From the NCBI GenBank assembly GCA_964393935.1, contig CAYMXF010000007.1, positions 1 through 27,314 on the forward strand: a stretch of 27,314 nt of DNA. The letters are read 5' to 3'. Numbering within the stretch: position 1 is the first letter of the stretch; every line of letters starts with the position of its first letter. Shown piece by piece: positions 1,179 through 24,122 of this stretch. A program made the position numbers and the translations under genes. This DNA is from an uncultured Planctomycetaceae bacterium (GTDB lineage: Bacteria > Planctomycetota > Phycisphaerae > UBA1845 > UTPLA1). The notes under the pieces are model-generated. The model was not told the DNA's origin and ran no database searches. It saw only the letters and a program-made list of their open reading frames with translations.

Positions 1179-2343
1179 CTAGCATAGAGGCACCGTCGCG
1201 AGGGAAAATGCGCCGAGGGTCATGAACACTATCGGAAGCTCAAAACCGCCTCCCTCAATATGCCGTATGCCAGCGGCGCTGACGCGCCGGCCGAAATTGT
1301 CAGCGTTTAGGCAGAGTCCGAATGCGTGCGAATGTCGCTCCGGGGCAACGAAATCGGCAGTGGTCGAGTACAGCACCGAGGATGTGCCGTTAAGCGTCAC
1401 GCCGACCAGCGGCAGCAGGACGAGGGCGGGTATCAGCGGAAGAAAATGGAGCGCGATGATAGTCACTCCGGTCGCCAGTTCGGTCACCACCATGCGGATC
1501 ACTCCCAAGCGCTCGGCCAGGAACCCGCAGGCGAGCTTGCCGGCCGCCCCACCGATGAACAGCAGCGCCATGGCGAATCCGATGATATCGGCCGCGGCGC
1601 CCTTGGCGATCAACAGGAACGGCACGAAAGTGAAAACCGCCGCGCGGACCGTGTCGCCGACAACACCGATTGCCGCCAGCGCCGAGAAGCCGCGGCGATT
1701 CCGGATGCCCCAATTCGCGGTCGAACTCCGGATGTCGCCGCCGTCTGCTGCGGGCGCGGCCGCTGGATGGGGCCCGCCGGAACGAAGCCTGAGGAGGATG
1801 AGCCACAGGCCGACGGCGGCGGCCACGCACAGCGCGCCGACGCCAACGACGCTCGCACGCCAGCCGAAGGCGTTGATCATCAGTCCAACCAGCGCCGGGA
1901 TCGCCGCCTTGCCGATGTCGCCCGCGAAATTGTAGGTACCGAGGGCCGCGCGGTACGAACCCTGGGAATATGCTGTCGCCACCAGCGACGAGGCAAGAGG
2001 GTGTTGCGCGTCCGAGGCGGCCCCGGCGACCAGCAGGCAGACCAGCTACGCGATGAACCCCCGCTCCACCCCATCAACTCGAAGCCGAGGCCCATGATCG
2101 CAGTGCCAAGAGCGAGCAGCCCGCGTTCGCCGATGTGCTCGGCAAGCATACCCATCGGCAACTGAAGCCCGCCATCGCCAGCGAATACGTAGTCTTAAGG
2201 GAACCAACCTGCGACATGGAGAAATTGAAGCCCGGCGCCCAGAACGGCAGCAGCATGTAGATCGAACTGTAGCACCCGTGGTGCACCGCATGGGCTGCGG
2301 CGCAGGTCAAAAGTAGCCCGCGGGCATGCGGTCGCGGCGTCAT
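1179..2343 (-). pseudogene. MFS transporter (Fsr-like) pseudogene
   Basis: One hydrophobic MFS protein is split across ORFs 2074..2361, 1880..2161 and 1179..1982. Frameshifts near 2164 (GF/QLPMG) and at the C-run 2058-2062, plus an in-frame TAG at 2046-2048 (GFIA*LVCLLVAGAASDAQHPLASSLV). A further shifted-frame segment near 1229-1310 reads TLTISAGASAPLAYGIL. Confidence 0.88.
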
Positions 2344-2381
2344 GGCGGATCGATGCGGCATCCGTGGCGCATTCTACCGGC

Positions 2382-3692
2382 TCACAGGCTGCGAATCACC
2401 TTGCGCAGGATGTCGCACATCTCGTCGACATGCCGTTTCTCGGCAATGAAGGCGGGCGCGACCACGACGGTATCGCCCGGGGCACGAACCAGAAGCCCGG
2501 CCTCGAACGCTTTGCTCAACGCCTCGTGACCGCGCGCCCCAACCTTGTCGGCAGGTGCGAGCTCGATGCCGGCGAGCAGGCCATAGCCGCGGATGTCGTA
2601 GACGATCGGAATGTCGCGCAGGGCGTGTACCTGCTTGAGGAAGTAGGGCGTCAGCTCCTCGGCACGCTCGAACAGGGCGTCCCGCGCGAAGATCTCCAGT
2701 GTTGCGAGCGCGGCGGCACAGGCGACCGGCGAGGCCGAATGGGTGTAGCCGTGAAAAAACTCGATCGACTCCGCCGAGGCGGCGTTGGTGATTGTTTCGT
2801 AGATCTGGTCGCGAACCGCGACCGCGGACATCGGCACGGTGCCGTTGGTTATGGCCTTGGCCATGGTCATGATGTCGGGCGTGACCCCGAAGCTCTGCGC
2901 CGCGAACGCCTTGCCCGTCCGGCCGAACCCAGTTCCGACCTCGTCGAACACGAGCACGATGCCGGTCGCGTCGCAGATCTTGCGGATCCTCTCGAGATAG
3001 CCCTTGGGCGACACCAGCACGCCGGTCGATCCGGCGATCGGCTCGATGAACACGGCCGCGATGCTGTCCGCGCCGAAGGTATCGACGGCGCGCTGCAGGT
3101 CGTCGGCCAGCTCGGCACCGGTCTCGGGTTGGCCGATTGAGAACCTCTGCTCCGGAGTCCAGGTGTGGCGAATGTGGATCACGCCCGGGAGCCCGATTCC
3201 AAAGGTGCGCCGGTTGCGCACCATGCCGCTGATCGACAGCCCGCCGAAGTTGACGCCGTGATAGGCGCGCTCGCGGCCGACGAAGCGCGTGCGTTGCGGC
3301 TCCCCGCGGGCGTGGTGGTAGGCGAGGCAAATCTTCATCGCCGAATCCGTTGCCTCTGAGCCGGAGCACGCGAAGAAGACATGATCGATCGAATCCGGCG
3401 CGAGGCCGGCAATCCGGCGTGCGAGCTCGTAGGATGACGGGTGGCCGAAGGAGAAATGGGGGACGTAGTCCGCCTCCTGCAACTGCTTGAGGATGGCGGT
3501 CTCGATCTCCTTCCGCTTGTGGCCGGCGGAGACGCAGAACAAGCCCGAGCAGCCGTCCATGACGCGCCGCCCGCCCTGGTCCCAGTAGTACATGCCGTCG
3601 GCGCGGATGATCAGCCGCGGATTAGCCTTGAAGCTGCGGTTGGCGGTGAACGGCATCCAGTGGTGTTCGAGCGAATTGGCGAGCTTATGCAT
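2382..3692 (-). CDS. Class III PLP omega-amino acid:pyruvate aminotransferase (beta-alanine/omega-TA type)
   Basis: HWMPFTANR N-terminus, DGCSGLFCV, AYHG, FIEPIAGSTG, FDEVGTGFGRTG, PDIMTMAK (PLP lysine), HGYTHS. GGAGAG RBS upstream. Confidence 0.92.
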   Translation of the reverse strand: MHKLANSLEHHWMPFTANRSFKANPRLIIRADGMYYWDQGGRRVMDGCSGLFCVSAGHKRKEIETAILKQLQEADYVPHFSFGHPSSYELARRIAGLAPDSIDHVFFACSGSEATDSAMKICLAYHHARGEPQRTRFVGRERAYHGVNFGGLSISGMVRNRRTFGIGLPGVIHIRHTWTPEQRFSIGQPETGAELADDLQRAVDTFGADSIAAVFIEPIAGSTGVLVSPKGYLERIRKICDATGIVLVFDEVGTGFGRTGKAFAAQSFGVTPDIMTMAKAITNGTVPMSAVAVRDQIYETITNAASAESIEFFHGYTHSASPVACAAALATLEIFARDALFERAEELTPYFLKQVHALRDIPIVYDIRGYGLLAGIELAPADKVGARGHEALSKAFEAGLLVRAPGDTVVVAPAFIAEKRHVDEMCDILRKVIRSL

Positions 3693-3731: not shown

Positions 3732-4706
3732 TCATACGCGGACCGCGCGGACGGCTTGGGCAATCGCTTCCTCGTTCGGCACCACGACCGCCTCGAGGGA
3801 GGGGCTGACCGGAGCCGGTGCCTCCGCGCCGCCGACTCGCTTGATCGGCCCCTTGAGGTACTTGAACGCCAGATCGGCCAGGACCGCCGCGATTTCGCCC
3901 CCCACCCCACCGATCACGTTGGCTTCGTGGACGATGACGGCGCGACCAGTCTTCCTAACCGAACTCACGAGGGTCTTCACGTCGAGGGGTTTGATGGTCC
4001 TGGGATCGACCACCTCGATCGAGATTCCTTCCGCGGCCAGCTTCTCGGCGACCGCGATGGCACGCGGCACCATCGCCCCGAGCGCGATGATCGTCACGTC
4101 CGTTCCTTGGCGCTTCACGTCGGCAACGCCCAAGGGGATCACGTATTCGGTCTCCGGCACGGAACCTTTAAGCGAATAGACCCCTTTCGGCTCGTAAAAG
4201 ATGACGGGGTTGTCGTCGCGCACGGCGGATTTGAGCAAGCCTTTGACGTCGTAGGGGGTCGAGGGCATCACAACCTTGAGACCCGGAAAGTGATTGAAGA
4301 TCGCCTCATTGCTTTGCGACTGCTGTGGCCCGCCGCCGCGGCGGAAACCCGACCAGACACGGCAGACCAGGGGAACTGAAGACTTTCCATCGTAGAAGTA
4401 ATTCATCTTGGCTGCCGTGTTTGCGATCTGATCCATCGCCACCAGGATAACATCGGCCAGCCCGAGCTCGAGGATCGGCCGGAATCCCTTAAGCGCGGCG
4501 CCGACTGCGGCGCCGACGAAGCCACACTCGGAGATCGGGGTTTCGAGAACCCGCTCCGCGCCGAACTCGTCGATAATCCCGATGGTTGTGCCGGTGAGGC
4601 CCCCGAAGCTGCCGACGTCCTCCCCCAACAGGATGACTTTCGGGTCGCGGCGCATCTCTTCGATCATGGCCTCGCGGATCGCGTCTTGGTAGCTGAGGAT
4701 CTTCAT
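3732..4706 (-). CDS. ThDP-dependent 2-oxoacid/acetoin dehydrogenase E1 beta subunit, copy 2 (divergent)
   Basis: LLGEDVG, ETPISECGFVG, DQIANTAAK, VVMPSTPYDVKGLL, DDNPVIFYE, IEVVDPRTIKPLD. PQQSQ stands where the family has xQHSQ. Confidence 0.92.
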   Translation of the reverse strand: MKILSYQDAIREAMIEEMRRDPKVILLGEDVGSFGGLTGTTIGIIDEFGAERVLETPISECGFVGAAVGAALKGFRPILELGLADVILVAMDQIANTAAKMNYFYDGKSSVPLVCRVWSGFRRGGGPQQSQSNEAIFNHFPGLKVVMPSTPYDVKGLLKSAVRDDNPVIFYEPKGVYSLKGSVPETEYVIPLGVADVKRQGTDVTIIALGAMVPRAIAVAEKLAAEGISIEVVDPRTIKPLDVKTLVSSVRKTGRAVIVHEANVIGGVGGEIAAVLADLAFKYLKGPIKRVGGAEAPAPVSPSLEAVVVPNEEAIAQAVRAVRV

Positions 4707-4731
4707 CGGGTGGACTCCGTCCTTCGGCGTT

Positions 4732-5733
4732 TCAGCGATAGACGTTCTCGAGGGCGACCGCGCCCGGGGCGTATGGCGCTGTTTCAGCGAAGTCGACCGC
4801 CGCTCTGACCTCGCTTTGGGCTTCCTTGTCCCACTGCGCCAGCTGGCTCTCGGTCGCGTGCTTGCCCGCGAGCAGGGTCGCTTTGAGCCGAAAGATCGGG
4901 CAACGCGCCTTCCAGCTCGCTATCTCCTCCGGGGTGCGGGCGAATTCGCGCGTCCCGGCGGTCGAATGCGGAGTCCAGCGGTAGGTCTCGCACTCGATCA
5001 ACGTCGGCCCCTCGCCGCGGCGCGCGCGCGCGATCGCTTCTTGCGTCGCGTGATAGACCTTGACCGCGTCGTTGCCATCGACCAGCGGACCAGGAATGCC
5101 GTAGGCGCCGGCGCGGGCGCGAATGCTGCCCCCGGCAGTCGAGGCGGAAACCGGCATCGACTTAGCGTAGAAGTTGTTCTCGCAGAAAAACACGATCGGA
5201 AGCTTCCAGATCGTGGCGAGATTGATGCCCTCGTGGAAGTCGCCACGGTTCACCGCGCCGTCACCAAAGAATGAGATGACGACGTCCGGCTTCTTCTCGA
5301 GCTTGGTTGCCAGCGCGGCGCCGACCGCAAGCGGAATCACCGACCCGACCATCGAGGTGCCGGCAAGGATGCCGAGGTCGGGCGCGCACATGTGATAGAT
5401 CGGAATGCGCCCGCGGGTCGGCGAGTCGGCCTTGGCGTAAAGACCGGCCATGACGTCACGGACCGATATCCCGCGGGCAATAAGCACCCCGAGGCCGCGG
5501 TGCGTGATCATGGTCATGTCGGTCTTAGTGAGGCCGTGGCAGACCCCCGCCGGGATCGCTTCCTGTCCCATGCCGCCATGATAATTGGCGTACTTCCCGG
5601 TTTGGGCGAGTTCGAACGAGACCTCTTCGAATCGCCGGATCAAGACCATCCGGCGGTAGATGGCGACCAGATCCGCGAGCGAGAGAGCGGGCACGGGCTG
5701 TTCCCGCGGCTGGACCTTCGGTGGCGTGCTCAT
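4732..5733 (-). CDS. ThDP-dependent dehydrogenase E1 alpha subunit, copy 2 (divergent)
   Basis: GMGQEA, THRG, GDGAVNRGDFHEGINLATIWKLPIVFFCENN (ThDP/Mg motif), VDGND, GEGPTLIECETYR. Confidence 0.92.
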   Translation of the reverse strand: MSTPPKVQPREQPVPALSLADLVAIYRRMVLIRRFEEVSFELAQTGKYANYHGGMGQEAIPAGVCHGLTKTDMTMITHRGLGVLIARGISVRDVMAGLYAKADSPTRGRIPIYHMCAPDLGILAGTSMVGSVIPLAVGAALATKLEKKPDVVISFFGDGAVNRGDFHEGINLATIWKLPIVFFCENNFYAKSMPVSASTAGGSIRARAGAYGIPGPLVDGNDAVKVYHATQEAIARARRGEGPTLIECETYRWTPHSTAGTREFARTPEEIASWKARCPIFRLKATLLAGKHATESQLAQWDKEAQSEVRAAVDFAETAPYAPGAVALENVYR

Positions 5734-5751
5734 GTTGGGCTCCTCGCGGTT

Positions 5752-6783
5752 CTAGAATTCGCACCCGGCGGCGGGACCCCGGGTCGCGTCCCCGAGGTGC
5801 GGCGTTTGGGGCAGCACCAGCCGGCGCACCGCGTCGGCCAGGATTTTCTGCGGCCGCAGATATACGGACTCCAGCGTCAGGCCGCTTGGGACCGGGATAT
5901 CGGGTGCTGCGACCCGAACCGGCGGTGCGTCCAGCCAGTCGAACGCCTTTTCGACCGCGCGGGCGACGATCTCGGCGCCGAAGCCTGCAGACATGCACGC
6001 CTCGTGACAGACAACTAGGCGCCCGGTCTTCTCGATCGCGCCGATCACGGTGGCGTCGTCGAACGGCACCAGCGTACGCGGATCGACAACCTGACATTCA
6101 ATCCCTTCCGCCGCCAACTCGTCGGCCGCCGCGAGCGCCCAGTGGAGCGCGCGTGACCACGCAACGATGGTGACATCCTTGCCCTCCCGGCGGATCGCGG
6201 CGCGGCCGAGAGGAATGCGATGGTCGCCGTCGGGAACCTCGCCCTTCATCGTGTAAAGCAGCTTGTGCTCCATGAAGACGACCGGATCGTCGTCCTCGAC
6301 CGCGGACAGCAGCAGCCCCTTGGCGTCGGCAGGAGTCGCGGGCATGGCCACCTTCAGGCCTGGGATGTGGGCAAACCACGCCTCGAGGCTTTGCGAATGG
6401 TGCACGCCGTAGCCGAGGCCCGCGCCGCACGTCATGCGTAACACCATCGGCACCGCGGCGCGGCCGCCAGAAGCGTAGCGGAACTTGGCCGCCTGATTGA
6501 AGATCTGATCCCAGCAGGTGCCGACGAAATCGACGAATCCGATCTCCAGGATCGGCCGTGCGCCGACCAAGGCCGCGCCGACGCTCGCGCCGGTGATGGC
6601 GGCCTCCGAGATCGGCGTGTCAAGAACACGGCGAGAACCGAATTCGTCGATCAAACCCTTGGTCACACGGTAGATGCCGCCGTACCGGCCAATGTCCTCG
6701 CCAATCGCGAACACGCGCCGGTCCGAGCTGAGCGCGATCCGGTGCGCGTCGTTCAGAGCCTGGGCGTAGGTCATGACCGTCAT
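5752..6783 (-). CDS. ThDP-dependent dehydrogenase E1 beta subunit, copy 1 (AcoB/PdhB-like)
   Basis: IGEDIG, LDTPISEAAITG, DQIFNQAAK, GVHHSQSLEAW, DDPVVFMEHK. Start overlaps the alpha-1 stop (ATGA, 6780-6783). Confidence 0.93.
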   Translation of the reverse strand: MTVMTYAQALNDAHRIALSSDRRVFAIGEDIGRYGGIYRVTKGLIDEFGSRRVLDTPISEAAITGASVGAALVGARPILEIGFVDFVGTCWDQIFNQAAKFRYASGGRAAVPMVLRMTCGAGLGYGVHHSQSLEAWFAHIPGLKVAMPATPADAKGLLLSAVEDDDPVVFMEHKLLYTMKGEVPDGDHRIPLGRAAIRREGKDVTIVAWSRALHWALAAADELAAEGIECQVVDPRTLVPFDDATVIGAIEKTGRLVVCHEACMSAGFGAEIVARAVEKAFDWLDAPPVRVAAPDIPVPSGLTLESVYLRPQKILADAVRRLVLPQTPHLGDATRGPAAGCEF

Positions 6784-7799
6784 GACGCGGCGGGCCTCGC
6801 GCGGGCGGCCGTGGCCTTGGCGAAGACGTCTTCGAGCGCGGCCTCGGGCGGTGGATAGGGGCTACGCAAGGCGAATGCGGTCGCTTCGCGCACGATCTCG
6901 GCGGTCTGTGCCTTGATACAATCGAGCGCCGGTTGGTCGAGCATCTGGCGGTCGAAGAGCACCTTCTCAAGCCGCTGGATCGGGTCCTTGCTCTTCCACG
7001 CCGCGACCTCCTCTTTCGGCCGGTAGGATTTCGGGTCGCCCTCATAGTGACCGGAAATCCGATAGGTCTTGCACTCGATCAAGGTCGGGCCCTGCCCGGC
7101 GCGGGCCGCGGCGACGGCGGCGGAGGCGGCCTGGTAGACAGCGATCACGTCGTTACCGTCGACGATCTGGGCGGGGATCCGGTAGGCGGCCCCGCGTTCG
7201 GCCACGTGCTCGATCTTCTGCTGGTCGCGGGTGCTGATCGAGATGCCGTACTCGTTGTTCTCGCACACGAACACCACCGGCAGGTCCCAGATCGCGGCGA
7301 GGTTGAGGGATTCGTGAAAGGTGCCCTGGTTGTTCGCACCGTCGCCAAAAATGCACACGGTCACCCAATCGCCCTCCAGGATCCGCTGGCCGAGCGCCGC
7401 GCCGACCGCAAGCGGCAGGCCGGCGCCGACCACGCCGTTGGCGCCGAGGAACCCGACGTCGAGATCAATCAGGTGCATCGAGCCGCCTTTGCCGTGACAG
7501 CAGCCGGTTTGCTTCCCACACAGCTCTGCCAAGAGGGCCCGCGGCTGCCCACCCTTGGCCAGGAAATGGCCGTGGCCGCGATGCGTGCTGGTGATCTTGT
7601 CCTGGGGTTGCAGGGCGGCGCACACCCCGACCGCGACCGCTTCCTCGCCGATCCCGAGGTGGATTAGGCCGGTAATTTGTCCGCGTTTGCACAGCCGGCC
7701 GACCTCGTGGTCGCAGGCGCGCAGGAGATGCATGTTCGCGAGCATCTTAAGGATGGTCTCGCGCGGCGGTAATTCGGACTCTGGGATCGGGGTGGTCAT
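6780..7799 (-). CDS. ThDP-dependent dehydrogenase E1 alpha subunit, copy 1 (AcoA-like)
   Basis: HLGIGEEA, TSTHRGHGH, GKGGSMH, GANGVVG, GDGANNQGTFHESLNLAAIWDLPVVFVCENN, TYRISGHYEGDP. Confidence 0.94.
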   Translation of the reverse strand: MTTPIPESELPPRETILKMLANMHLLRACDHEVGRLCKRGQITGLIHLGIGEEAVAVGVCAALQPQDKITSTHRGHGHFLAKGGQPRALLAELCGKQTGCCHGKGGSMHLIDLDVGFLGANGVVGAGLPLAVGAALGQRILEGDWVTVCIFGDGANNQGTFHESLNLAAIWDLPVVFVCENNEYGISISTRDQQKIEHVAERGAAYRIPAQIVDGNDVIAVYQAASAAVAAARAGQGPTLIECKTYRISGHYEGDPKSYRPKEEVAAWKSKDPIQRLEKVLFDRQMLDQPALDCIKAQTAEIVREATAFALRSPYPPPEAALEDVFAKATAARARPAAS

Positions 7800-7953: not shown

Positions 7954-8005
7954 TTTGATCGATCAAACAGATTGAATAAGAACATTTTGAAACAATATAT
8001 GTCAA
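7954..8005 (-). promoter_or_regulatory. Putative promoter/operator of the E1-E1-omegaTA operon
   Basis: AT-rich island. Perfect 14-bp palindrome TTTGATCGATCAAA at 7954-7967; minus-strand TTGACA at 8000-8005; TCAAAAT elements. Confidence 0.6.
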
Positions 8006-8284
8006 CCAGATTCGGTAACGATTGCCACGCGGGCGATACTCGCAGTTCTCTCGGCCAAACTTGGTATTCCACAAAACCGCCTGTTTCAGGTTTGTGGCGG
8101 TGCCATGTCATGTTTTAATTTGTTCACATATGATATGAAGCGTGCTAAATTGTTTAACTGCGCCCGCCGAATGCGTGGAACGGATCTCGTTTGGTTGCCG
8201 CCCGGACCGGCCCCAGGCTACGAATCTCGTCCGTGCCACGGCAGGTTCAATCGTGCCAAACCCGAACTGATCAGGACGTATCCC

Positions 8285-9055
8285 GTGATCCAGGCCGCCC
8301 GTCACAAGGAAATCCGCGACATCCTCGACCGCCAGGGCGTGGTGTCAATCTCGGACCTGGCGCGGAAGTTCAGGAAGTGCCCGATCACCATCCGGCGCGA
8401 CTTTTTGATCCTCGAAAGGCAGGGCGTGCTGGTCCGTACACATGGCGGCGCCACGACAACGCCCGATCTTGCCACAGAACCGCCACCCTACGATATCCGG
8501 GAGCGGCTCCACGCCAAGGAGAAGGCTTCGATCGCCAAGAAGGCGGCTGAGTTCATCGCCGAGGGCGATACGCTAATCATCAACGCCGGAACGACGATGC
8601 ACAGGTTGGCGCGCAGTTTGCGCCAGCGGAAGAACCTTCAGGTCGTCACCAACGGCTTGACGGTGGCGATGGAACTCGGCCATTCGCCTGGCACGCAGGT
8701 TCTCATGATCGGGGGCATGGTCGATTTCAAGAAGCTCGGCACCGTCGGACCGCTCGCCGAAGAAACCATCACCAACATGCGCGTCACCAAGGCCTTTCTT
8801 GGGGTGACCGGCGTGTCCCTGGACCATGGCCTGTTCATGCACAGCCCGATGGAAGCCCAGATCAACGCTCTGTTCGTCAAGGCCGCCCGCGAAGTCACCG
8901 TGGTCGTCGATTCAAGCAAGTTCGAGGCGGGAACCTTGTTCCGAGTCGCGCCACTCGACACGATCGATCGGATCATCACCGACAGCCAGATCCAGCCGGA
9001 AACTCGCCGCGCGCTCGACAAAATGGGACTGGAAGTCGTGATCGTCCCGGCGTAG
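8285..9055 (+). CDS. DeoR/GlpR family transcriptional regulator (copy 1)
   Basis: Likely start is GTG 8285, not 8105. IQAARHKEIRDIL...TIRRDF..LE..G...RTHGGA wHTH; INAGTT, VVTNG, GG...GTVGP, KAFLG, DSSKF sensor domain. Divergent from the E1 operon. Confidence 0.93.
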   Translation: MIQAARHKEIRDILDRQGVVSISDLARKFRKCPITIRRDFLILERQGVLVRTHGGATTTPDLATEPPPYDIRERLHAKEKASIAKKAAEFIAEGDTLIINAGTTMHRLARSLRQRKNLQVVTNGLTVAMELGHSPGTQVLMIGGMVDFKKLGTVGPLAEETITNMRVTKAFLGVTGVSLDHGLFMHSPMEAQINALFVKAAREVTVVVDSSKFEAGTLFRVAPLDTIDRIITDSQIQPETRRALDKMGLEVVIVPA

Positions 9056-9205: not shown

Positions 9206-10573
9206 ATGACCGATCGTGCGACCGACGATGCCGACAGATCGATGGCGACCCCTTCCGGGAAGGTCAGGAAAATGTCCAAACCTGCCGATATTGACGACCC
9301 GCTTATCGACGACCTCTTCAAGGGCATTCCCGGCGGCGTGGCGCCGTTCCACCTGGACGACATCGGCCGCAAGGGATGGAATGTCCTGCGCGAGGATCTG
9401 CCGCTGCCACTCGCGGTGCTCAAGGCTTCCGCGCTTGATAACAACCAACGCTGGATGCGGGCGTTTCTCACGGCCGGCGGCGCGACGATCGCTCCGCACG
9501 GTAAAACATCGTTGAGCCCGCAGATCTTCCAACGCCAGCTCGACGGCGGCGCTTGGGCGATCACGGTGTCCACCGCCCACCATGTGCAGGTATGCCGGCG
9601 GTTTGGGATCAACCGCATCCTGATGGCCAATCAGTTGATCGGCCGACAGGCGATCCGTTACGTGCTCGATGAGTTGAGGCGCGCCGCGGAATTCGAATTC
9701 TTCTGCCTCGTGGATTCGTTGGAAGGAGTCGAAGCGCTCCGCAAAGCCGTCGCCGCGGCACCTATCGGACGCCCGATTCATCTCCTGTTGGAGGGTGGGG
9801 TGAAAGGTTCGCGAGCCGGATGCCGCGAACTCGACAGCGCTTTGGCAGTGGCCCGGGCGATCAAGGCCTGCGAACCTCATCTCGTGTTGTCCGGGGTCGA
9901 AGGTTACGAAGGGGTCATCTACGGCTCGGTCGCGGAGGACTGCGAAACCCGGGTCAGGGATTTCATGGATTTCTTGGTCAAGATCGCCGAAGCCTGCGCG
10001 CGGGAAAAGCTGTTCTCGGGTCAACCCGTCATTCTGAGCGGCGGGGGCTCGGCATACTACGACATCGTCGTCGACCGGCTCGCCAAGGCGAAGCTCGGTT
10101 GCGAGACGATGGTATTGACGCGCAGCGGCGGATACCTGTTTCACGATTCGGGCATGTATCGACGCCATTTCGCGCGCATGCAGGAGAGGTCCGCGAAGTT
10201 GAGGAAACTGGGCGGCAGTCTGCGCCCGGCGATCGAGGTCTGGAGTTACGTGCAGTCGTGTCCCGAGCCTGAGAGGGTCATTCTCGCCTTGGGCAAGCGC
10301 GATATCTCCTTCGACAACGACCTGCCGATGGTCGAGCTGTGGTACCGGCCGGGATTCCATAACCGGCCGCACCCCGTCTGCGCCGGTTGCCGTGCGGTCG
10401 AGATGCACACCCAGCACATCCATATGGATGCTCCTGTGGGCCATCCGTTCCGCGTCGGCGATATGGTCTCCCTCGGCATCTCGCAGCCCTGCACGACATT
10501 CGACAAGTGGCAGGTGATCCCGGTCGTTGACGACGACTACAATGTCATATCGGCGATCCGCACGTTCTTTTGA
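9206..10573 (+). CDS. Fold-type III PLP enzyme, D-serine dehydratase/amino-acid deaminase-like (COG3616-type)
   Basis: APHGKTS (PLP lysine), GAWAITVS, ILMANQ, SRAGCR, GVEGYEG, LSGGGSAYYD, RSGGYLFHD, ALGKRDISFD, QHIHM, GISQPCTTFDKW. Exact start uncertain (9206, 9242 or 9272). Confidence 0.82.
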   Translation: MTDRATDDADRSMATPSGKVRKMSKPADIDDPLIDDLFKGIPGGVAPFHLDDIGRKGWNVLREDLPLPLAVLKASALDNNQRWMRAFLTAGGATIAPHGKTSLSPQIFQRQLDGGAWAITVSTAHHVQVCRRFGINRILMANQLIGRQAIRYVLDELRRAAEFEFFCLVDSLEGVEALRKAVAAAPIGRPIHLLLEGGVKGSRAGCRELDSALAVARAIKACEPHLVLSGVEGYEGVIYGSVAEDCETRVRDFMDFLVKIAEACAREKLFSGQPVILSGGGSAYYDIVVDRLAKAKLGCETMVLTRSGGYLFHDSGMYRRHFARMQERSAKLRKLGGSLRPAIEVWSYVQSCPEPERVILALGKRDISFDNDLPMVELWYRPGFHNRPHPVCAGCRAVEMHTQHIHMDAPVGHPFRVGDMVSLGISQPCTTFDKWQVIPVVDDDYNVISAIRTFF

Positions 10574-10612: not shown

Positions 10613-11479
10613 TCAACCGAAAATGATCAGCACGATCCCGCCGACTAGGACGAGCGACGCCAACAGCCGCCACACGAAAGCGCTCTCGCCCAACATCCAG
10701 CTGCCAAGCAGCACAGAGATCGGGAGCGAGGCTTGGCGAACGGCGGAAACGGCGGCCACGTTGCCGCCCAAAGTCAGAGCTTTCAACAGCAGATAGAACG
10801 ACGCATAACTGGTGGCGGCAGCCAAGAAGCACCGAACGGCAATCCGCGAAAAGTCGGCGGCGAACGAACCAAGCCGCATGCCGTCCGCCTTCGCTTGGCG
10901 CAACGCGACCATGCCGAGCAGCGGAAGTATCAAGACGACCGTCCAGAACAGCCGCACCTCGGGCGAAATAATCTTCATCAGCCGGGCATCGGTGAGCGAA
11001 TAAACGCAGGTTCCAAACATCGCCACGAACGCAAACAGCAAAACCCGCAGATTTTCAAGCGGGTGGACGTTACGCTGCCACTGGATCAGAAAGACGCCAA
11101 GGATTGTGACCGAAATGCCGAGTAGGAGCGAAACGCCATAGCTCTCCCCTAGAACGAGGAAATCGATCAAGACGATCCCGAAAGCGGTCGATCGAAGGAT
11201 CGGATAATAGATCGATAGATCCCCGTACCTGAGCGCGGCGACGGCGAAGACCCCGTACACCAGCTCGCCGCCGGCCGCGAGAAGCAGGAGTGGCCACGCT
11301 CGCCCCGGAATCAGAAAGGATGCATCGCCAAGCGACACGTGAAGACCAGCAAGAGCCGCCGTGAAGGCGAAAATCACGAAATAGGTGAATTCCGGGTTCC
11401 TGTCGCTCTTGACGACCAATTCGCGGAAGGGATGGAGCGCAGCCGATGCCAGGGCGCAGATCGCGACTTCGAAACCCAT
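10613..11479 (-). CDS. EamA/DMT membrane transporter, resembling the phosphonate-cluster-associated EamA clade
   Basis: Highly hydrophobic protein with two EamA-like halves; GDLSIYYPILRS, TCVYSLTD, VSAVRQASL..SVLLG.W.LGE. Confidence 0.82.
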   Translation of the reverse strand: MGFEVAICALASAALHPFRELVVKSDRNPEFTYFVIFAFTAALAGLHVSLGDASFLIPGRAWPLLLLAAGGELVYGVFAVAALRYGDLSIYYPILRSTAFGIVLIDFLVLGESYGVSLLLGISVTILGVFLIQWQRNVHPLENLRVLLFAFVAMFGTCVYSLTDARLMKIISPEVRLFWTVVLILPLLGMVALRQAKADGMRLGSFAADFSRIAVRCFLAAATSYASFYLLLKALTLGGNVAAVSAVRQASLPISVLLGSWMLGESAFVWRLLASLVLVGGIVLIIFG

Positions 11480-11554: not shown

Positions 11555-12169
11555 TCACAAGAGCTGGAACGCGACATCCTTCGACGTGCGGTCTAGACCG
11601 TTGGTCAGCGACATGTCCTGCGGACAAGCGGACAAGACGACCACGACATTGTCCAGCTCCGCCCGCAGGAGCAGGTAGTCTCCTGGCCGCGAAAGCGGGG
11701 GCTGGATCTCCAGCCACCCTCCCGGGTTCTGGCCTCCGGTCACGACCACCCGCTCGAACATGTTAAATGGAGCCGGGATATACGGCGTCATGTAGCCGAG
11801 TTTGGCGAGCGCCGCCCTGAGATTGTCAGCGCAGTTGGCGTGATAACCCTTGTGGCCGAGCAGGCGGTAGCGGTCGACGTCGCAGGCGGCGTGGAGCGTG
11901 TCATGGACGCCCGGCGAGGTGTCCTCGATGACGGTCAGGATCGGCCGCCGCCGGTTGCTGTACAAGGCGTCGCCAATTCCTGGGAACAGCTTTTCGAGGC
12001 ACGAGCGAGTATGCTCCATAGAAGTGAATTCGCTCATGTCGTCGGCGTTGAAGGCCCAGGTATCGACGACCTGCTGACCGTGGGTGTTGATCACCTTGAT
12101 GTGCTGGCCTTTGGCAATGCGCACCGCCTTGCCGTGCCCGCCCGCAATCTTGATGGGTTCGATTGTCAT
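11555..12169 (-). CDS. DUF1989 (urea carboxylase-associated family) protein
   Basis: Likely start ATG 12169 (MTIEPIKIAGGHGKAV). INTHGQQVVDTWAF, LYSNRRRPILTVIEDT, HDTLHAACD, HANCADNL, PFNMF, SRPGDY, SACPQD. Confidence 0.9.
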   Translation of the reverse strand: MTIEPIKIAGGHGKAVRIAKGQHIKVINTHGQQVVDTWAFNADDMSEFTSMEHTRSCLEKLFPGIGDALYSNRRRPILTVIEDTSPGVHDTLHAACDVDRYRLLGHKGYHANCADNLRAALAKLGYMTPYIPAPFNMFERVVVTGGQNPGGWLEIQPPLSRPGDYLLLRAELDNVVVVLSACPQDMSLTNGLDRTSKDVAFQLL

Positions 12170-12426
12170 TGGCTCGCCCCTCTGCCTTATCGCTGTGATC
12201 TTATTCGCAACCCGTACGATCGCCACGATCATCCTCGCCTCGCTCGCCATTTCCGCCGGCCCGTTTTCGACCGGTGTACCGACCGCGGGCGCAACCTCCC
12301 GGCGATCGACCGTCCGATTTTCGGTTTCGCCTTTTCCGGCGCCGGTCGCGCGACCCGGACCACGAATTCGATCGTCATCCGCCCGTTCGCGTGTCACATC
12401 AAGAGAATCCTCAGAGAACCGCTCGG

Positions 12427-12559: not shown

Positions 12560-13627
12560 ATGTTCCACAGCGTAACCTCTAAGGCAGGCCAATGTCTTGC
12601 CGCCTTCTTCTCCGTCGGCGCAATGGTCATGGGTTTTGCGTGGAATCCAGCGCCGGCCGGTGAATTGGTCGTCTACAGCACCATCGATCCCGACGAGGTG
12701 CCCCTCTACAAAGGAGCCTTCGAAAAGTCCAACCCGAGCATCACGCTCAACATCGTCCGCAGCTCGACCGGTACGACCACAGCCCGGATCTTGGCGGAAA
12801 AGGATAATCCGCGGCACGATGTCATCTTCCGCATGGCTAACACTAGCTTGATCGTTTTCGGCAAGGAAGGATTGCTCTATCCTTACGAGCCGAAGGGGCT
12901 CGCGAGGATCGATCCTGCGTTCAGGGACAAAGTCAACAATCCGCCGCTTTGGGTCGGGAGCAACGCGTATACGAACGCGATTTGCTACAACATCCCCGAG
13001 TCCAAGAAGCTTGGCCTGCCCCCGCCCAAAACCTGGGCGGACCTGATCAAGCCCGTCTACAAGGGCTATATCGTGGCGCCCAACCCGCAGGCCTCGGGCA
13101 CCGGATTCATCAACATCACCGCCTGGATCTTTCTGTGGGGCGAGGATAAGGCTTTCGAATACATGGACAAGCTGGACGAAAACATCAAGTTCTACATGAA
13201 TTCGGGGTCCGCGCCTTGCGTCAAGGCTGGTTCGGGCGAGGTGCCGATTGCCTTGTCCTGGGATTTCCGCGCCGCCAGGCTGATCGGCCAGGGCGCTCCC
13301 ATCGAACTCATCGTCCCGGAAGAAGGCCTAGGGTGGGACCTGGAAGGCTCCGCCATCATGAAGGTCGCGGAAAAGAATGACCGCCTTGCGGACGCGAAGA
13401 CATTCATGGATTGGACGATCTCCGAGGAAGCCCTGAAGGTGCATAACAAAAACTTCGCCATTATTGCGACGCCCGACAAGGTGGAGCCGGTGCCAAACCA
13501 TCCGTCATCTAAGGGCGACATGATGAAATACCTGCTCAAGTATGATTTCGTGTGGAACGCGGAAAACCGCAATCGGTTGATCGCCAAGTGGACCGCGCGC
13601 TACGAAGGCAAGGTCGAAAAGCCGTAA
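12560..13627 (+). CDS. phnS: ABC transporter substrate-binding protein, PhnS2-type (putative 2-aminoethylphosphonate binding)
   Basis: Signal-peptide-like N-terminus. VRSSTGTTTARILAEKDNP, PNPQASGTGF, SGSAPC, EGLGWDLEGSAI match the PhnS2/AfuA-like family as recalled. Confidence 0.82.
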   Translation: MFHSVTSKAGQCLAAFFSVGAMVMGFAWNPAPAGELVVYSTIDPDEVPLYKGAFEKSNPSITLNIVRSSTGTTTARILAEKDNPRHDVIFRMANTSLIVFGKEGLLYPYEPKGLARIDPAFRDKVNNPPLWVGSNAYTNAICYNIPESKKLGLPPPKTWADLIKPVYKGYIVAPNPQASGTGFINITAWIFLWGEDKAFEYMDKLDENIKFYMNSGSAPCVKAGSGEVPIALSWDFRAARLIGQGAPIELIVPEEGLGWDLEGSAIMKVAEKNDRLADAKTFMDWTISEEALKVHNKNFAIIATPDKVEPVPNHPSSKGDMMKYLLKYDFVWNAENRNRLIAKWTARYEGKVEKP

Positions 13628-13666
13628 TTTTACCGCCCCACACCCAATCTTCCGAACTCAATCAAC

Positions 13667-13700
13667 AATCGGCTACCCGCGAACGAGTAGCCGATTTTCT
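13667..13700 (+). terminator. Stem-loop with T tract after the SBP gene (intra-operon attenuator/stabiliser)
   Basis: AATCGGCTAC (13667-13676) pairs with GTAGCCGATT (13687-13696), followed by TTCT. Confidence 0.65.
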
Positions 13701-13749
13701 CTGGCCTGACGGCAGTGCCAACTTCGGCGCAAGCGGATAGGATGGCAGG

Positions 13750-14862
13750 ATGAACAATACTGCGCTATCGCCGAAGAGCGGGAAACGCAGACCGTACCTT
13801 AAGATCGAGAACCTCACCAAGAAGTTCGGCGACTTCATGGCACTGAATGGCGTTTCCCTCGACATCTACGAGGGCGAGTTCATTTGTTTCCTGGGCCCGT
13901 CCGGCTGCGGCAAGACAACCCTGCTACGAACCATTGCGGGGCTGGAGATCCGGACCTCCGGCCGCATCGAGCAGGCCGGCCGCGACATCTCGGTATTGCC
14001 GCCGGCGCAGCGGGATTTCGGGATCGTCTTCCAGTCCTATGCCCTCTTTCCTAACCTGACGGTGGTCGAGAACGTCGGCTATGGCCTCGATCGGCGCAAG
14101 ATTGGGAAGGCTGCGGCTGACGCCCGTGTCGACGAGTTGCTGCATCTCGTCGGCATGCCGGAGCAGGGCTCGAAGTATCCGGCGCAGCTTTCCGGCGGCC
14201 AGCAGCAACGAGTGGCGCTCGCCCGTGCACTCGCCATGTCGCCAGGCTTGCTCCTGCTGGACGAGCCGCTGAGCGCGCTCGACGCCAAGGTACGGGCACG
14301 GCTGCGTCACGAGATCAAGATGCTTCAGCATCGACTCGGTATTACGACCATCCACGTCACCCACGATCAGGAAGAAGCTCTGACCATGGCCGATCGCATC
14401 GTGGTGTTGAACGAGGGCGTCGTCCAACAGGTTGGAACACCGCTTGAGATCTATCGCCAACCCGTGGACCGGTTCGTCGCCACTTTCGTCGGAACCATGA
14501 ATTTTATGCCGGCGGTCGCAGGGGGCGGCGGCAAAGTGCGCTGCATCGGCATCGAGATCACCCCGGGGACATGCCCCGACGGCCTAGCCGAAGGCACGGC
14601 CGTGACCGCATGCGTGCGCCCGGAAGATATCCTCGCCCGCGGCGTCGACGCAGCCGCCACGAACGCCCTGGAAGTCACGGTCGTCGACCTCGAGTTCCTG
14701 GGCTTTTTCTTCCGTGCCGAACTTTCGCCGAAAGGTATGGATAACGTGGCGTTCAATGCTATTTTCTCGCCCAACCTCATGCGCGATTCTGACATCCAGG
14801 TCGGCCGCTCTATGACTGTCGCCTTCCGCGAGGAGCGGGTTCACGTCTTCAAAGACCTTTAA
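13750..14862 (+). CDS. phnT: ABC transporter ATP-binding protein, PhnT2-type
   Basis: GPSGCGKTT (Walker A), VFQSYALF (Q-loop), LSGGQQQRVALARA, LLLLDEP, HVTHDQEEA; TOBE-like C-terminus. Confidence 0.9.
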   Translation: MNNTALSPKSGKRRPYLKIENLTKKFGDFMALNGVSLDIYEGEFICFLGPSGCGKTTLLRTIAGLEIRTSGRIEQAGRDISVLPPAQRDFGIVFQSYALFPNLTVVENVGYGLDRRKIGKAAADARVDELLHLVGMPEQGSKYPAQLSGGQQQRVALARALAMSPGLLLLDEPLSALDAKVRARLRHEIKMLQHRLGITTIHVTHDQEEALTMADRIVVLNEGVVQQVGTPLEIYRQPVDRFVATFVGTMNFMPAVAGGGGKVRCIGIEITPGTCPDGLAEGTAVTACVRPEDILARGVDAAATNALEVTVVDLEFLGFFFRAELSPKGMDNVAFNAIFSPNLMRDSDIQVGRSMTVAFREERVHVFKDL

Positions 14863-14900
14863 CAGCGGTCGCCACGACTCGTGCACGATGGAGCCACCCT

Positions 14901-16589
14901 TTGGCGAAGCAAGCTACGACGGCCACACAGAATTTAGGCCGCGATGATTGGATTTTGCGCGGCGTCATAGTCTTGATCATTGCCGCGCTGTCGATCACGA
15001 TCCTGCTGCCGCTTTGTTTCTTCCTGGTGAAAAGCCTGCAGAACGCGAACCGCGAGTTCGTCGGGATCACCAACTATATCCGATATTTCAATTCCGCGAG
15101 GTTGGTCCGCTCTATCGGCAACAGCATGTTCGCCGGCAGCCTATCGACCGTGATTTCCGTCACGCTGGCGTTCGCTTATGCCTATGGTCTGACACACAGC
15201 TGTCTGCCGGGTAAGGGCTTCTTCCGGGTCATTGCTTTCTTTCCGATGTTTGCGCCGTCGCTGCTGCCGGCAATTTCGTTCGTCTATTTCTTCGGCACGC
15301 AGGGCGTCATCAGAGGCGCTCTGATGGGACACGAGATCTACGGTCCGATCGGAATCGTCATGGGCTTGGTGTTCTACACCTTCCCCCACGCTTTTATAAT
15401 CATCCTGATCGCACTTTCGCTCGCCGATGCGCGATTGTACGAGTCGTCGATTTCGCTACGCGCCTCCAAGTTTAAAACCTTCCACAAAGTGACCCTGCCC
15501 GGCGTGAAGTACGGCCTGATCAGCGCGGCATTCGTTTCCTTCTCGCTCGCGATCACCGACTTCGGCGTGCCCAAGGTCATCGGCGGCAAGTTCACTATGC
15601 TGGCAACCGACATCTATTCCAACGTAGTCGGCGTGCAAGATATGGAGACGGCCGCGGTGGTGGGCGTGGTACTGCTGGTTCCCGCCGCGGTCGCCTTCGT
15701 CTGCGACCGTATGATCCAGGGCAAGCAGATGGCGATGCTATCTGCGCGCGCGGTGCCCTACAGTCCGAAGCCAAGCCGATGGTTCGACCTAACGATGCTC
15801 GGGATTTGCAGCCTGATCGCGTTTCTGATCCTTAGCGTGCTGGTCATGGCTGCTTTTGCATCCCTGGTCCAGTTCTGGCCCTACAATCTCACCCTCACCC
15901 TCGCCAAATACGACTTCGCCGCGACCACCGACAGGGGGTGGGGCGCTTACCATGTCTCACTGTTGATGTCTGGCCACGTCGCAGTGTTCGGCACCGTGCT
16001 GATTTTCGGCGGCGCCTACCTGGTCGAGAAGTCACGCGCTTTCCCGATCGGCCGTTTGGCAATCCAGTTCTTGGCGATGATGCCGATGGCGGTGCCGGGC
16101 ATGGTGCTAGGATTAGCTTACATCTTCTTCTTCAACCATCCCAAGAACCCCCTCGGATTTCTCTATGGAACGTTGGCGATCCTGGTGATCGTCACCGTCA
16201 CCCATTTCTACACGGTCGGCCATCTGACGATGGTGACCGCCTTGAAGCAACTGGACAACGAGTTCGAATCCGTTTCAGCTTCTCTGAAGGTGCCGATTTA
16301 CAAGACCGTCTGGCGGGTCACGGTGCCGGTCTGCGTCCCGGCGATTCTTAACATTATGGTCTATTTATTCATCAACAGCATGACAACCGTTTCAGCCTTG
16401 GTCTTCCTTTATTTCCCCAACACCATGACAGCTTCGATCCTGATGCTTTTCCAGGATGACAACGGCAACTTGGGATCGGCGCTTGCTCTTGGCATGGTAA
16501 TTTTCCTCACCTCGGTGGGCGTGCGCTTCCTGTATTGGCTCCTCACGCTCGGCATCAGCCGCCGGACTCAGGCTTGGCGCGCGTCATGA
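14901..16589 (+). CDS. phnU: ABC transporter fused double permease, PhnU2-type
   Basis: TTG start with GGAG upstream. Two permease repeats; APSLLPAISFVYFFGTQG, DARLYESSISL, TDFGVPKVIGG, QLDNEFESVSASLK. Confidence 0.85.
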   Translation: MAKQATTATQNLGRDDWILRGVIVLIIAALSITILLPLCFFLVKSLQNANREFVGITNYIRYFNSARLVRSIGNSMFAGSLSTVISVTLAFAYAYGLTHSCLPGKGFFRVIAFFPMFAPSLLPAISFVYFFGTQGVIRGALMGHEIYGPIGIVMGLVFYTFPHAFIIILIALSLADARLYESSISLRASKFKTFHKVTLPGVKYGLISAAFVSFSLAITDFGVPKVIGGKFTMLATDIYSNVVGVQDMETAAVVGVVLLVPAAVAFVCDRMIQGKQMAMLSARAVPYSPKPSRWFDLTMLGICSLIAFLILSVLVMAAFASLVQFWPYNLTLTLAKYDFAATTDRGWGAYHVSLLMSGHVAVFGTVLIFGGAYLVEKSRAFPIGRLAIQFLAMMPMAVPGMVLGLAYIFFFNHPKNPLGFLYGTLAILVIVTVTHFYTVGHLTMVTALKQLDNEFESVSASLKVPIYKTVWRVTVPVCVPAILNIMVYLFINSMTTVSALVFLYFPNTMTASILMLFQDDNGNLGSALALGMVIFLTSVGVRFLYWLLTLGISRRTQAWRAS

Positions 16590-18299: not shown

Positions 18300-19097
18300 C
18301 TACCGAACGTGCGCGATCACGACCTCCAAACCCAGTTTCTGCAGCGCCTGCCTGACGTCGCGATTGAGTTTGTTGTCCGTCACGATTCTCTTTATTTCAG
18401 TCAGCTTGGCCACTGGGAAAAGGAAATTCGCCTCGAACGGATCGGAGAAGTTGACCTCGAACTTGCTTGAATCGGCAACCACGGTGACTTCTTTCGCCGC
18501 GCGCAGGAACCGGCGATTGATCTCGGCCTCGAGCGGGCTGTGCACAGAGATTCCACGTTCGATCGAGACCGCCAGAACTCCGAGGAACGCTTTCGGCACC
18601 TGGATTCCCTGCATCATCTTCTCGGCTAGCGGGCCGATCGTCGCGAGCTCCTTCGAGTCGACCGCGCCGCCGATCAGAAGTACCTGAGAGTCGGGCGCGT
18701 TCGAAATCTCTATCGCAACGGCCAGGCCGTTGGTAACCACCTTCAGGTTTTTCACGTTCTTGAGCTGGTGCGCCAGCACGCGCATGGTCGTGCCTGCGTT
18801 GATGATCAAGCTGTCGCCATCCTGTATGTATTCGGCCGCTTTTTGCGCGATCGACAGTTTCTCCGCGTAGTATTCTTTCTCGCGGACCTCGTAAGGCGAC
18901 ATCAACTTGTCCGGCGTGACCAGGGCGACAGCGCCGCCGTGCGTACGGACGAGATGGCCGCCGCTGTCCAGCATAGCCAGATCCCTCCGGATCGTGACCG
19001 CGGAAATGCTCAACTTCTCGGCAAGATCCGCGATGGAAACGACACCGTCCTTATTGAGCAGGGATTTAATCTTGTTGTGGCGGGCGGCCCGGATCAT
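18300..19097 (-). CDS. DeoR/GlpR family transcriptional regulator (copy 2, paralog of 8285..9055)
   Basis: Likely start ATG 19097 (MIRAARHNKIKSLL). TIRRDL, RTHGGA, INAGTTM, VVTNGLAVA, KAFLG, HSPLEAEIN, DSSKFE. Confidence 0.93.
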   Translation of the reverse strand: MIRAARHNKIKSLLNKDGVVSIADLAEKLSISAVTIRRDLAMLDSGGHLVRTHGGAVALVTPDKLMSPYEVREKEYYAEKLSIAQKAAEYIQDGDSLIINAGTTMRVLAHQLKNVKNLKVVTNGLAVAIEISNAPDSQVLLIGGAVDSKELATIGPLAEKMMQGIQVPKAFLGVLAVSIERGISVHSPLEAEINRRFLRAAKEVTVVADSSKFEVNFSDPFEANFLFPVAKLTEIKRIVTDNKLNRDVRQALQKLGLEVVIAHVR

Positions 19098-19290
19098 GTG
19101 TTTTGGGTTTGATCGTCTGTTCACAGTCCGGGGTCCGTGACGATTATGCGGGCTGGGGGAAGGTGCCAACCAAGAACGGCATCGCTGGCGAGCGAACACA
19201 ATACAATAAAAGCAAGTGTATCATCAGGGTGGCTTGCCGGACACCCCAAAATTTTCTCCGACGCGCTCTCAGCCCTGACCGAGTCGGCAT

Positions 19291-24103: not shown

Positions 24104-24122
24104 CGGAGCGTCAATCAGCCCT

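Follow-up and report, generated by a model that had tools for sequence, protein, structure and literature searches.

The closest described relatives of the genes considered here are the thiamin diphosphate (ThDP)-dependent E1 components of the 2-oxo acid dehydrogenase complexes, in which, to our knowledge, a histidine of the beta subunit is described as conserved in all known E1s. In the pyruvate dehydrogenase (PDH) E1 of Geobacillus stearothermophilus this residue, H128-beta, contacts the 2-oxo group of the substrate and has been proposed as the general acid for the reductive acetylation of lipoate (PMC2663715). The H128Q-beta mutant has 100.2% of the activity with 2,6-dichlorophenolindophenol (DCPIP) and 3.8% of the PDH-complex activity, and in H128N both activities are lost (PMC2663715). 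A second residue, I206-alpha, is in contact with the thiazolium ring, and its replacement in I206A gives a DCPIP activity of 1331% and a complex activity of 35% (PMC2663715, Pei et al. 2008). The H128Q and I206A mutants thus retain or increase enamine formation, whereas their coupling to lipoyl-E2 is lost. Here we describe a 27,314-nucleotide (nt) stretch of DNA (the window), which is the entire contig C7 of a metagenome-assembled genome (MAG; 660 contigs, 87% complete) and which encodes two tandem, non-identical E1 alpha/beta pairs, alpha1-beta1 (pair 1) and alpha2-beta2 (pair 2). Pair 2 is naturally changed at both positions of the H128Q and I206A mutants, with Lys at the second where the mutant tested has Ala; whereas the Geobacillus proteins are laboratory point mutants, pair 2 represents a natural, well-conserved lineage with many other changes. 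This lineage, with the beta His and the thiazolium-packing Ile replaced, almost always travels with a canonical E1. On balance we think it probable that pair 2 functions apart from a canonical pair 1, as a ThDP decarboxylase, lyase or carboligase that does not depend on lipoyl groups, the two pairs forming two separate enzymes of alpha2beta2 composition.

Comparison with known systems shows several likenesses and differences. First, the solved E1s of PDH and of branched-chain 2-oxo acid dehydrogenase (BCKDH), namely 1W85 and 3DUF of G. stearothermophilus, 1UM9 of Thermus thermophilus, 1DTW of human BCKDH and 1NI4 of human PDH, share with the window proteins the two-subunit architecture and domains, the GDG...NN motif, the activating beta Glu and the alpha catalytic His, with E-values of 1e-35 to 1e-78. 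Pair 2 differs from them in having Gln for the beta His, Lys for the thiazolium-contacting Ile, and further clade-specific changes, and the Tyr of the YR motif of the solved E1s is His in both alpha1 and alpha2. Secondly, pair 1 shares motifs of the THRGHGH, GKGGSMH and GHYEGD types with the acetoin dehydrogenase E1 (AcoA/AcoB) and PDH-like sequences that were fetched; we know of no aco operon of which a DeoR regulator, a second E1 pair or a transaminase is a part. Thirdly, split ThDP decarboxylases that act without lipoamide are represented by the sulfopyruvate decarboxylase ComDE and by phosphonopyruvate decarboxylase, and there are also E1-like C2-transfer enzymes in natural-product pathways. 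ComDE and phosphonopyruvate decarboxylase would be functional analogues of the role proposed for pair 2, with two subunits, an anionic 2-oxo acid as substrate and no lipoyl acceptor, although they have a different fold arrangement and belong to a different family, not to the PF00676-type E1s.

A first-pass annotation of the window reported the gene order alpha1-beta1-alpha2-beta2-omega-transaminase and its tight packing, and both are borne out. The five open reading frames (ORFs) are co-directional on the minus strand with spacings of -4, 18, 25 and 39 nt, the beta1 start overlapping the alpha1 stop (ATGA, 4 nt), and because of this tight spacing we read them as one operon with the transaminase last. 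In order of transcription they are (aa, amino acids; Pfam domains with scores):

6780–7799, minus strand: alpha1, acetoin/PDH 'y'-type E1 alpha subunit, 339 aa (E1_dh, 290.6 bits)
5752–6783, minus strand: beta1, E1 beta subunit, 343 aa (Transket_pyr, 144.8 bits; Transketolase_C, 121.9 bits)
4732–5733, minus strand: alpha2, divergent E1 alpha subunit, 333 aa (E1_dh, 254.7 bits)
3732–4706, minus strand: beta2, divergent E1 beta subunit, 324 aa (Transket_pyr, 122.4 bits; Transketolase_C, 138.2 bits)
2382–3692, minus strand: class-III omega-aminotransferase of the AptA type, 436 aa (Aminotran_3, 307.5; NCBIfam NF052567, 607 against a cut-off of 500)

The two pairs belong to different E1 lineages, with 38% identity between alpha1 and alpha2 and 47.5% between beta1 and beta2. 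In a tree of 114 alpha sequences the alpha2 clade has a Shimodaira–Hasegawa-like approximate likelihood ratio test (SH-aLRT) support of 100 and a stem of 0.88, and it groups (support 100) with the other E1 alpha of the same genome; this protein is encoded on contig C38 and, with a score of 421.3, passes TIGR03181, the equivalog for the PDH 'x-type'. The alpha1 clade (support 100) is placed among Aco/PDH 'y-type' sequences. The beta tree is concordant, with support of 100 for each of the beta1 and beta2 clades and locus L109 (loci are designated by our own handles) as the nearest outgroup of beta2. Both alpha subunits in the window fall under the NCBIfam equivalog cut-offs, alpha1 scoring 354.8 and alpha2 271.9 against 393.85 for TIGR03182, and 269.5 and 268.8, respectively, against 411.35 for TIGR03181. 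We reject a recent tandem duplication followed by decay of the second copy, given the separate lineages of the pairs and the equal conservation of pair 2 and pair 1. The separation of the lineages in both trees, together with the clade-wide changes at the two uncoupling positions, fits an early suggestion that these are two enzymes with different ThDP chemistry.

We note that a different lineage also has two tandem E1 alpha/beta pairs (L125, 8271–13280). There the pairs are sister copies, indicating a recent duplication, and the beta His is retained in the downstream beta at least; the cassette described here is thus not the only case of E1 pairs in tandem.

Pair 1 had been called canonical from its THRGHGH, SGHYEGDP and VHHSQ motifs, all of which are present, and it has the full catalytic set. 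In alpha1 this comprises G152-D-G...E180-N-N, Ile186 in ENNEYGIS, and His251 in SGHYEGDP; His251 is aligned with the His that precedes the phospho-serine of human PDH E1 alpha, the best Protein Data Bank (PDB) match of alpha1. In beta1 the activating Glu60 lies in PISE and His129 in VHHSQS, and the motif YGVHHSQSLEA is common to all beta1-clade sequences. The nearest named database relatives of alpha1, at 55–57% identity, carry automatic annotations as the alpha subunit of acetoin:DCPIP oxidoreductase. Judged by these residues and relatives, pair 1 is probably an ordinary lipoyl-coupled E1 of the acetoin/PDH type.

The pair 2 motifs listed at first pass (THRGLGV, TPHSTAG, PQQSQ, GDG...ENN and PISE) are likewise all present, and residues were assigned from HMMER alignments to the solved E1 chains 1um9, 1w85_B, 3duf_B, 6cer_B and 1dtw_A. 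The alpha2 ThDP/Mg motif is retained as G157-D-G...E185-N-N, as is the activating Glu60 of beta2 in PISE, and in both pairs Glu60 and the GDG...ENN residues align with E59-beta and with D173, Q200 and N202 of the Geobacillus enzyme. The catalytic His of alpha2 is retained too, as His256, since YRWTPHS aligns column for column with YRYGPHS of Thermus and YRIGHHS of human BCKDH; its equivalents are H271 in G. stearothermophilus, H291 in human BCKDH and H263 in human PDH. The earlier statement that pair 2 has lost catalytic histidines therefore stands for the beta subunit, where Gln129 in PQQSQS occupies the column of the His in Thermus HHHSQS, Geobacillus ELHSDS (His128-beta) and human PDH AQHSQC, but its plural is overstated. 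The change in the alpha loop, which had been taken for a second loss, matches the Thermus and human BCKDH sequences at the His itself, and the two His of THRGHGH, for which Leu81 and Val83 stand in alpha2, are not universal catalytic residues, since human BCKDH has YREAGV at the same place. The alignments indicate that pair 2 is best described as having lost the beta histidine and the thiazolium-packing isoleucine. At the latter position, which is Ile in Thermus and human BCKDH, alpha2 has Lys191, four residues past the Mg-ligand Asn187 and thus at the same offset as I206-alpha from N202-alpha in G. stearothermophilus. In addition, Arg163 replaces Glu/Gln, and TRGRIPIYH replaces GKGGSMH. The gain of Arg163 and Lys191, residues whose positions are known by alignment only, suggests a substrate with an anionic group.

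These substitutions characterize the whole clade. At the His128-equivalent column the 24 sequences of the beta2 clade have Gln in 21 and Met in three, whereas all 123 E1-beta sequences outside the clade from the fetched loci have His. Every distinct alpha2-clade motif variant listed has Lys at the Ile position, and these variants also share THRGLGV, TRGR(I/H)P(I/V)(Y/F)H for GKGGSMH, NRG for NEG/NQG after GDG, ENNF(Y/F)AKS for ENNxY(A/G)(I/M)S, and the loop (T/A)PHSTAG(D/T/A)REF, which is one residue longer. The nearest outgroup pair, in L109, keeps both the beta His and the alpha Ile, which indicates that both substitutions go back to the clade's stem and were retained thereafter. The three Met-type beta2 genes (L008, 10973–11947; L009, 10949–11962; L010, 6253–7266) have the motifs GGAQMSQS or GGPQMAQS, and all three come from loci that encode an E2 (dihydrolipoyl acyltransferase).

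A protein search with alpha2 recovers about 45 orthologue clusters at 60–78% identity, after which identity falls to about 50%. Genomic contexts were fetched from assemblies, species-representative genomes and metagenomes, and the combination of a DeoR regulator with alpha1-beta1-alpha2-beta2 is seen in about ten types of neighbourhood. The order of the four E1 genes is kept wherever the flank suffices, and the four proteins share 62–75% identity across loci, both pairs being comparable in this respect, so that pair 2 is not decaying. A DeoR orthologue (49–61% identity) adjoins the module in L008, L009, L011, L012, L094, L202 and the P0028, P0303 and P0312 loci. In the reverse direction, all three alpha1-clade proteins picked without reference to alpha2 lead to beta1, alpha2-type and beta2-type genes with DeoR upstream. 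The arrangement, signature substitutions included, is found again in more than 20 independent contigs and is not due to chance. There is one departure from the pairing, in which alpha2-beta2 occurs alone, without alpha1-beta1, in a single subclade nested within the alpha2 clade (L014, L098 and L103–L106). These lone pairs carry the full pair 2 signature, with a DUF924 gene upstream and a convergent D-2-hydroxyacid dehydrogenase gene and a divergent transketolase gene downstream, and no alpha1 orthologue is found in the incomplete 1.2-Mb assembly behind L014.

Carriers of the module for which an organism name is given are uncultured Rhodospirillales/Rhodospirillaceae, together with a single 'Burkholderiales' MAG. 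In a sample of 400 genomes from the class to which the window belongs, one of them 96% complete and from the same genus, no alpha2 orthologue was found (best match 43% identity), and the module is therefore rare and patchy. A full-text literature search returned no description of such a double-E1 module and no characterized member, and the look-alikes of alpha2 in the ESM Atlas are generic E1-alpha clusters only.

Loss of the beta His extends beyond this clade. When beta2 was searched against 1.84 billion representatives of 50%-identity clusters and the best 150 E1-beta representatives were examined, 138 were found to have the His and about a dozen (~8%) another residue, six of these being Gln and some possibly reflecting alignment slips; His-less E1-beta lineages outside the beta2 clade thus appear to be a small minority, and we found none described in the literature. 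The representatives with Gln at the His128-equivalent column (P0165, P0184, P0215, P0233, P0244 and P0274) are unrelated, one of them being part of a 1133-aa fusion protein, and they are candidates for further lipoyl-independent derivatives of E1.

We propose that the operon is a portable catabolic cassette under the DeoR regulator that encodes two separate ThDP enzymes. Pair 1 would pass its ThDP-bound acyl group to a lipoyl-E2, which is encoded in cis in some relatives and is here presumably supplied in trans. Pair 2 would still make the ThDP enamine, without reductive acylation of lipoamide, and would be a non-oxidative decarboxylase, lyase or carboligase, probably acting on a carbonyl substrate that bears an anionic group. 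The carbonyl substrates would be delivered by interchangeable front-end enzymes, which in the window would be the AptA-type omega-transaminase, converting an amine to a carbonyl, and a pyridoxal 5'-phosphate (PLP) enzyme resembling D-serine dehydratase, and elsewhere a D-2-hydroxyacid dehydrogenase, a 3-hydroxyacyl-type dehydrogenase, or an isocitrate-dehydrogenase-like enzyme. We infer this division of labour, and the class of substrate, from the observed anatomy, conservation and substitutions and from the published effects of the mutants. If correct, it would mean that a component of a multienzyme complex has been recruited as a free-standing ThDP enzyme, and would define a catabolic cassette with two ThDP enzymes in uncultured marine-type Alphaproteobacteria.

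Several points weigh against this proposal. First, the mutant data derive from a PDH E1 to which alpha2 is only a distant match, in the weakest tier of its PDB matches. Secondly, Lys191 or another residue could have taken over the role of proton donor, with lipoyl coupling kept. Thirdly, no tested fact accounts for the role of pair 1 or for the joint travel of the pairs. Fourthly, the supply of E2 in trans is presumed for a MAG that is only 87% complete and in 660 contigs. Finally, the location of an E2 gene directly after beta2 in L009 and L010 would also fit an E2-coupled pair 2.

The last of these points leads to the best of the alternatives, which we regard as rather unlikely, namely that both pairs are ordinary lipoyl-dependent E1s, each for its own 2-oxo acid or acyloin, with a single E2/E3 core (E3, dihydrolipoyl dehydrogenase) in common, encoded in cis in some genomes and of the housekeeping PDH type in others, and with Lys191, for example, substituting for the lost His. 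The first-pass annotation saw no E2 or E3 gene and suggested that the pairs may act without lipoamide. The absence is correct for the window, there being no lipoyl or E2 catalytic domain on the contig and no Pyr_redox-type E3 in Pfam scans of its large ORFs. For the module as a whole the claim fails: L009 and L010 have an E2 of the PDH 'mito' type (with lipoyl, E3-binding and catalytic domains; TIGR01349 score 453.9 against 445) directly after beta2, L009 also has an E3 three genes beyond the E2, L008 has a lipoyl E2 four genes downstream, and pair 1 is fully catalytic. The lack of E2 is thus a feature of this locus, since in some relatives the cassette does include one. These genes argue for a shared core, as do the intact alpha His256, Glu60 and ThDP motif of pair 2 and the presence of E2 genes elsewhere in the genomes of E2-less relatives. 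However, replacement of the His by Gln in a genuine E1 leaves the low complex activity noted above for H128Q, and the E2-bearing loci carry Met, not Gln or His, in beta2; Met is incapable of proton donation, and E2 therefore does not accompany a restored proton donor. Moreover, the remaining architectures, which are the majority, have no E2 in cis, and the one E2 found elsewhere in the window's own genome (on contig C87) is only 27% identical to the L009 E2 and is not its orthologue. Most simply, the cis E2 serves pair 1, as the holder of the full catalytic set; it is plausible that E2 is supplied to the cassette in trans, in what is an incomplete MAG.

The second alternative concerns the substrate and depends on the genes that surround the module. 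To the right of alpha1 these are:

8105–9055, plus strand, divergent from the cassette: DeoR-family regulator (Pfam HTH_DeoR and DeoRC)
9206–10573, plus strand: PLP enzyme of the D-serine dehydratase/D-threonine aldolase type (Pfam D-ser_dehydrat and Ala_racemase_N)
10613–11479, minus strand: EamA-type membrane protein (Pfam)
11555–12397, minus strand: DUF1989 protein (Pfam)
12560–16589, plus strand: ATP-binding cassette (ABC) importer of the PhnS2/PhnT2/PhnU2 ('putative 2-aminoethylphosphonate') type, consisting of a binding protein (12560–13627), an ATPase and a fused permease
16803–18242, plus strand: aldehyde dehydrogenase (Pfam Aldedh, 498.9 bits)

The true start of the DeoR gene is probably a GTG near 8286, because the helix-turn-helix domain starts at residue 66 of the long ORF and the homologues are 254–265 aa in length.

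Two sets of neighbours can be distinguished among the loci. The 'amine' set, to which the window belongs along with L097, L099 and the P0028 and P0312 loci, consists of an omega-transaminase encoded after beta2, the D-Ser-dehydratase/D-Thr-aldolase-like PLP enzyme, EamA, DUF1989, a PhnS2T2U2-type ABC importer and an aldehyde dehydrogenase. Its members are variously represented: the transaminase lies after beta2 in all four of the other loci, and is followed by the D-Ser-dehydratase-like homologue in L097, L099 and the P0028 locus; the P0028 locus has the EamA and DUF1989 pair, L099 a DUF1989 gene and the P0312 locus an EamA gene; and the aldehyde dehydrogenase gene follows the permease gene in the P0028 locus, as it does in the window. 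The 'hydroxy' set (L008, L011, L094/L202, the P0303 locus and the lone-pair loci) has a D-2-hydroxyacid dehydrogenase, often with an enzyme of the 3-hydroxyacyl-coenzyme A dehydrogenase family and a divergent transketolase. L009 is mixed, with an importer, a 2-hydroxyacid dehydrogenase and E2, and in L091 and L092 a gene of the isocitrate/isopropylmalate dehydrogenase family follows beta2. A 3-oxo-tetronate kinase, OtnK, is encoded beside DeoR in L012 (4017–5288; 594 against 350 bits), L101 and L108, which hints at a link with four-carbon acid sugars in that architecture. What these neighbours have in common is the conversion of amines or alcohols into carbonyl compounds, chiefly 2-oxo acids, and this fits a cassette that processes such compounds.

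With these neighbours in view, it can be proposed that pair 2 is a phosphonate- (or sulfonate-) specific ThDP enzyme of a new aminophosphonate route, in which the PhnS2T2U2-type transporter takes up a compound whose deamination or oxidation yields an anionic 2-oxo product (3-phosphonopyruvate or an acylphosphonate, for example), and this product is cleaved or decarboxylated by alpha2-beta2. We consider this improbable. In its favour, the importer scores above the NCBIfam cut-offs for PhnT2 (490.7 against 457.7) and PhnU2 (721.1 against 593.25) and just under that for PhnS2 (379.6 against 392.75), and importers homologous to it are neighbours of the E1 genes in L009/L010 and L099 and in the P0028 and P0312 loci; such an importer recurs in three or four architectures. 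Binding proteins of the PF13343 family import 2-aminoethylphosphonate in Pseudomonas and Stappia (PMC8316502). The aldehyde dehydrogenase that follows the permease has the phosphonoacetaldehyde (PhnY) and lactaldehyde dehydrogenase models as its nearest, both under cut-off (TIGR03250, 531.2 against 635.65), genes for a sodium/phosphate cotransporter and PhoU flank the module in L008 and L009, and the pocket region of pair 2 has gained Arg163 and Lys191. Furthermore, no protein above cut-off for PhnW (best 102.3 against 400.8) or PhnX (best 43.2 against 220) is found in the genome, so that the imported compound would need another route.

The support for a phosphonate route is nevertheless confined to gene context. 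The TIGR names of the transporter are themselves 'putative', the PhnY-like and PhnA-like proteins are both under cut-off (531 against 636 and 187 against 408), and half of the architectures lack the importer and have sugar-acid-type genes instead (OtnK, transketolase and 2-hydroxyacid dehydrogenase). Compared with the PhnW-PhnY-PhnA and PhnW-PhnX clusters, the window matches in importer type and in having an aldehyde dehydrogenase and an alkaline-phosphatase-superfamily hydrolase, and differs in the want of PhnW and PhnX and in carrying an E1 pair, which we found in no phosphonate pathway in the literature. Acylphosphonates are known as inhibitors of E1 and of DXPS, the synthase of 1-deoxy-D-xylulose 5-phosphate, and full-text literature searches returned no ThDP-dependent turnover of them, no ThDP-dependent cleavage of phosphonates, and no link between E1 enzymes and phosphonate turnover. 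It would be a long shot, then, that alpha2-beta2 founds an E1-derived class of ThDP enzymes acting without lipoamide on phosphorus- or sulfur-bearing carbonyls, as the core of an undescribed marine aminophosphonate route fed by the Aep/PhnS2T2U2-type importer; such a class may, for example, decarboxylate 3-phosphonopyruvate or cleave the carbon–phosphorus bond of an acylphosphonate through a ThDP adduct. The recurrence of an aminophosphonate-type importer does provide a concrete and cheap set of substrates to try.

Least probable of all is that the four subunits form one asymmetric alpha1-alpha2-beta1-beta2 assembly, as had been suggested from the window, or that pair 2 serves pair 1 as a regulatory or scaffolding partner with no catalysis of its own. 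In favour are the strict co-occurrence and fixed order of the pairs in most loci and the one catalytic residue missing from pair 2. Against it, alpha2-beta2 stands alone in the six lone-pair loci described above, and the pairs are only 38% and 47.5% identical and of different lineages. In addition, pair 2 invariably has the ThDP/Mg motif, the activating Glu and the alpha His, for which a scaffold would have no use, and the 4-nt overlap of alpha1 with beta1 contrasts with the 18 nt between the pairs.

Several further features of the window are noted. The AT-rich intergenic region between alpha1 and the DeoR gene contains a perfect 14-bp palindrome, TTTGATCGATCAAA (7954–7967), which we considered as an operator and set aside, since the regions upstream of alpha1 in ten related loci do not share it. 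Rfam searches of the window at gathering thresholds gave no RNA family and no thiamin pyrophosphate (TPP) riboswitch. Downstream of the transaminase, a gene for a major facilitator superfamily (MFS) transporter (1179–2361, minus strand) is split across at least two reading frames; translation of this interval in one frame has five stops, and the ORF at 1179–1982 covers profile positions 119–338 only. It is either a frameshifted pseudogene or the product of assembly errors in the MAG.

Farther to the right, beside a second DeoR regulator (18300–19199), the segment 19646–22805 forms a further amine-catabolic unit, with a class-IV (D-amino-acid/branched-chain) aminotransferase, an enzyme resembling 2,4-diaminopentanoate dehydrogenase (254.8 against 400 bits) and a GntR/FCD regulator. 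It is followed at 22958–25817 by the alkaline-phosphatase-superfamily hydrolase, which is distantly PhnA-like (187.1 against 407.55 bits), and by a 564-aa CobW/CobW_C GTPase; the two could be a metal-delivery pair. At the left end, trpB (3–998) flanks the cassette, as it does in the closest relatives, L099 and the P0028 locus (the latter with trpA), and the cassette is at a stable chromosomal position in this lineage, although one genome of the same genus is without it. The right end of the contig carries an integrase-core (rve_3) ORF (25842–26858), and a mobile element may be the cause of the contig break there.

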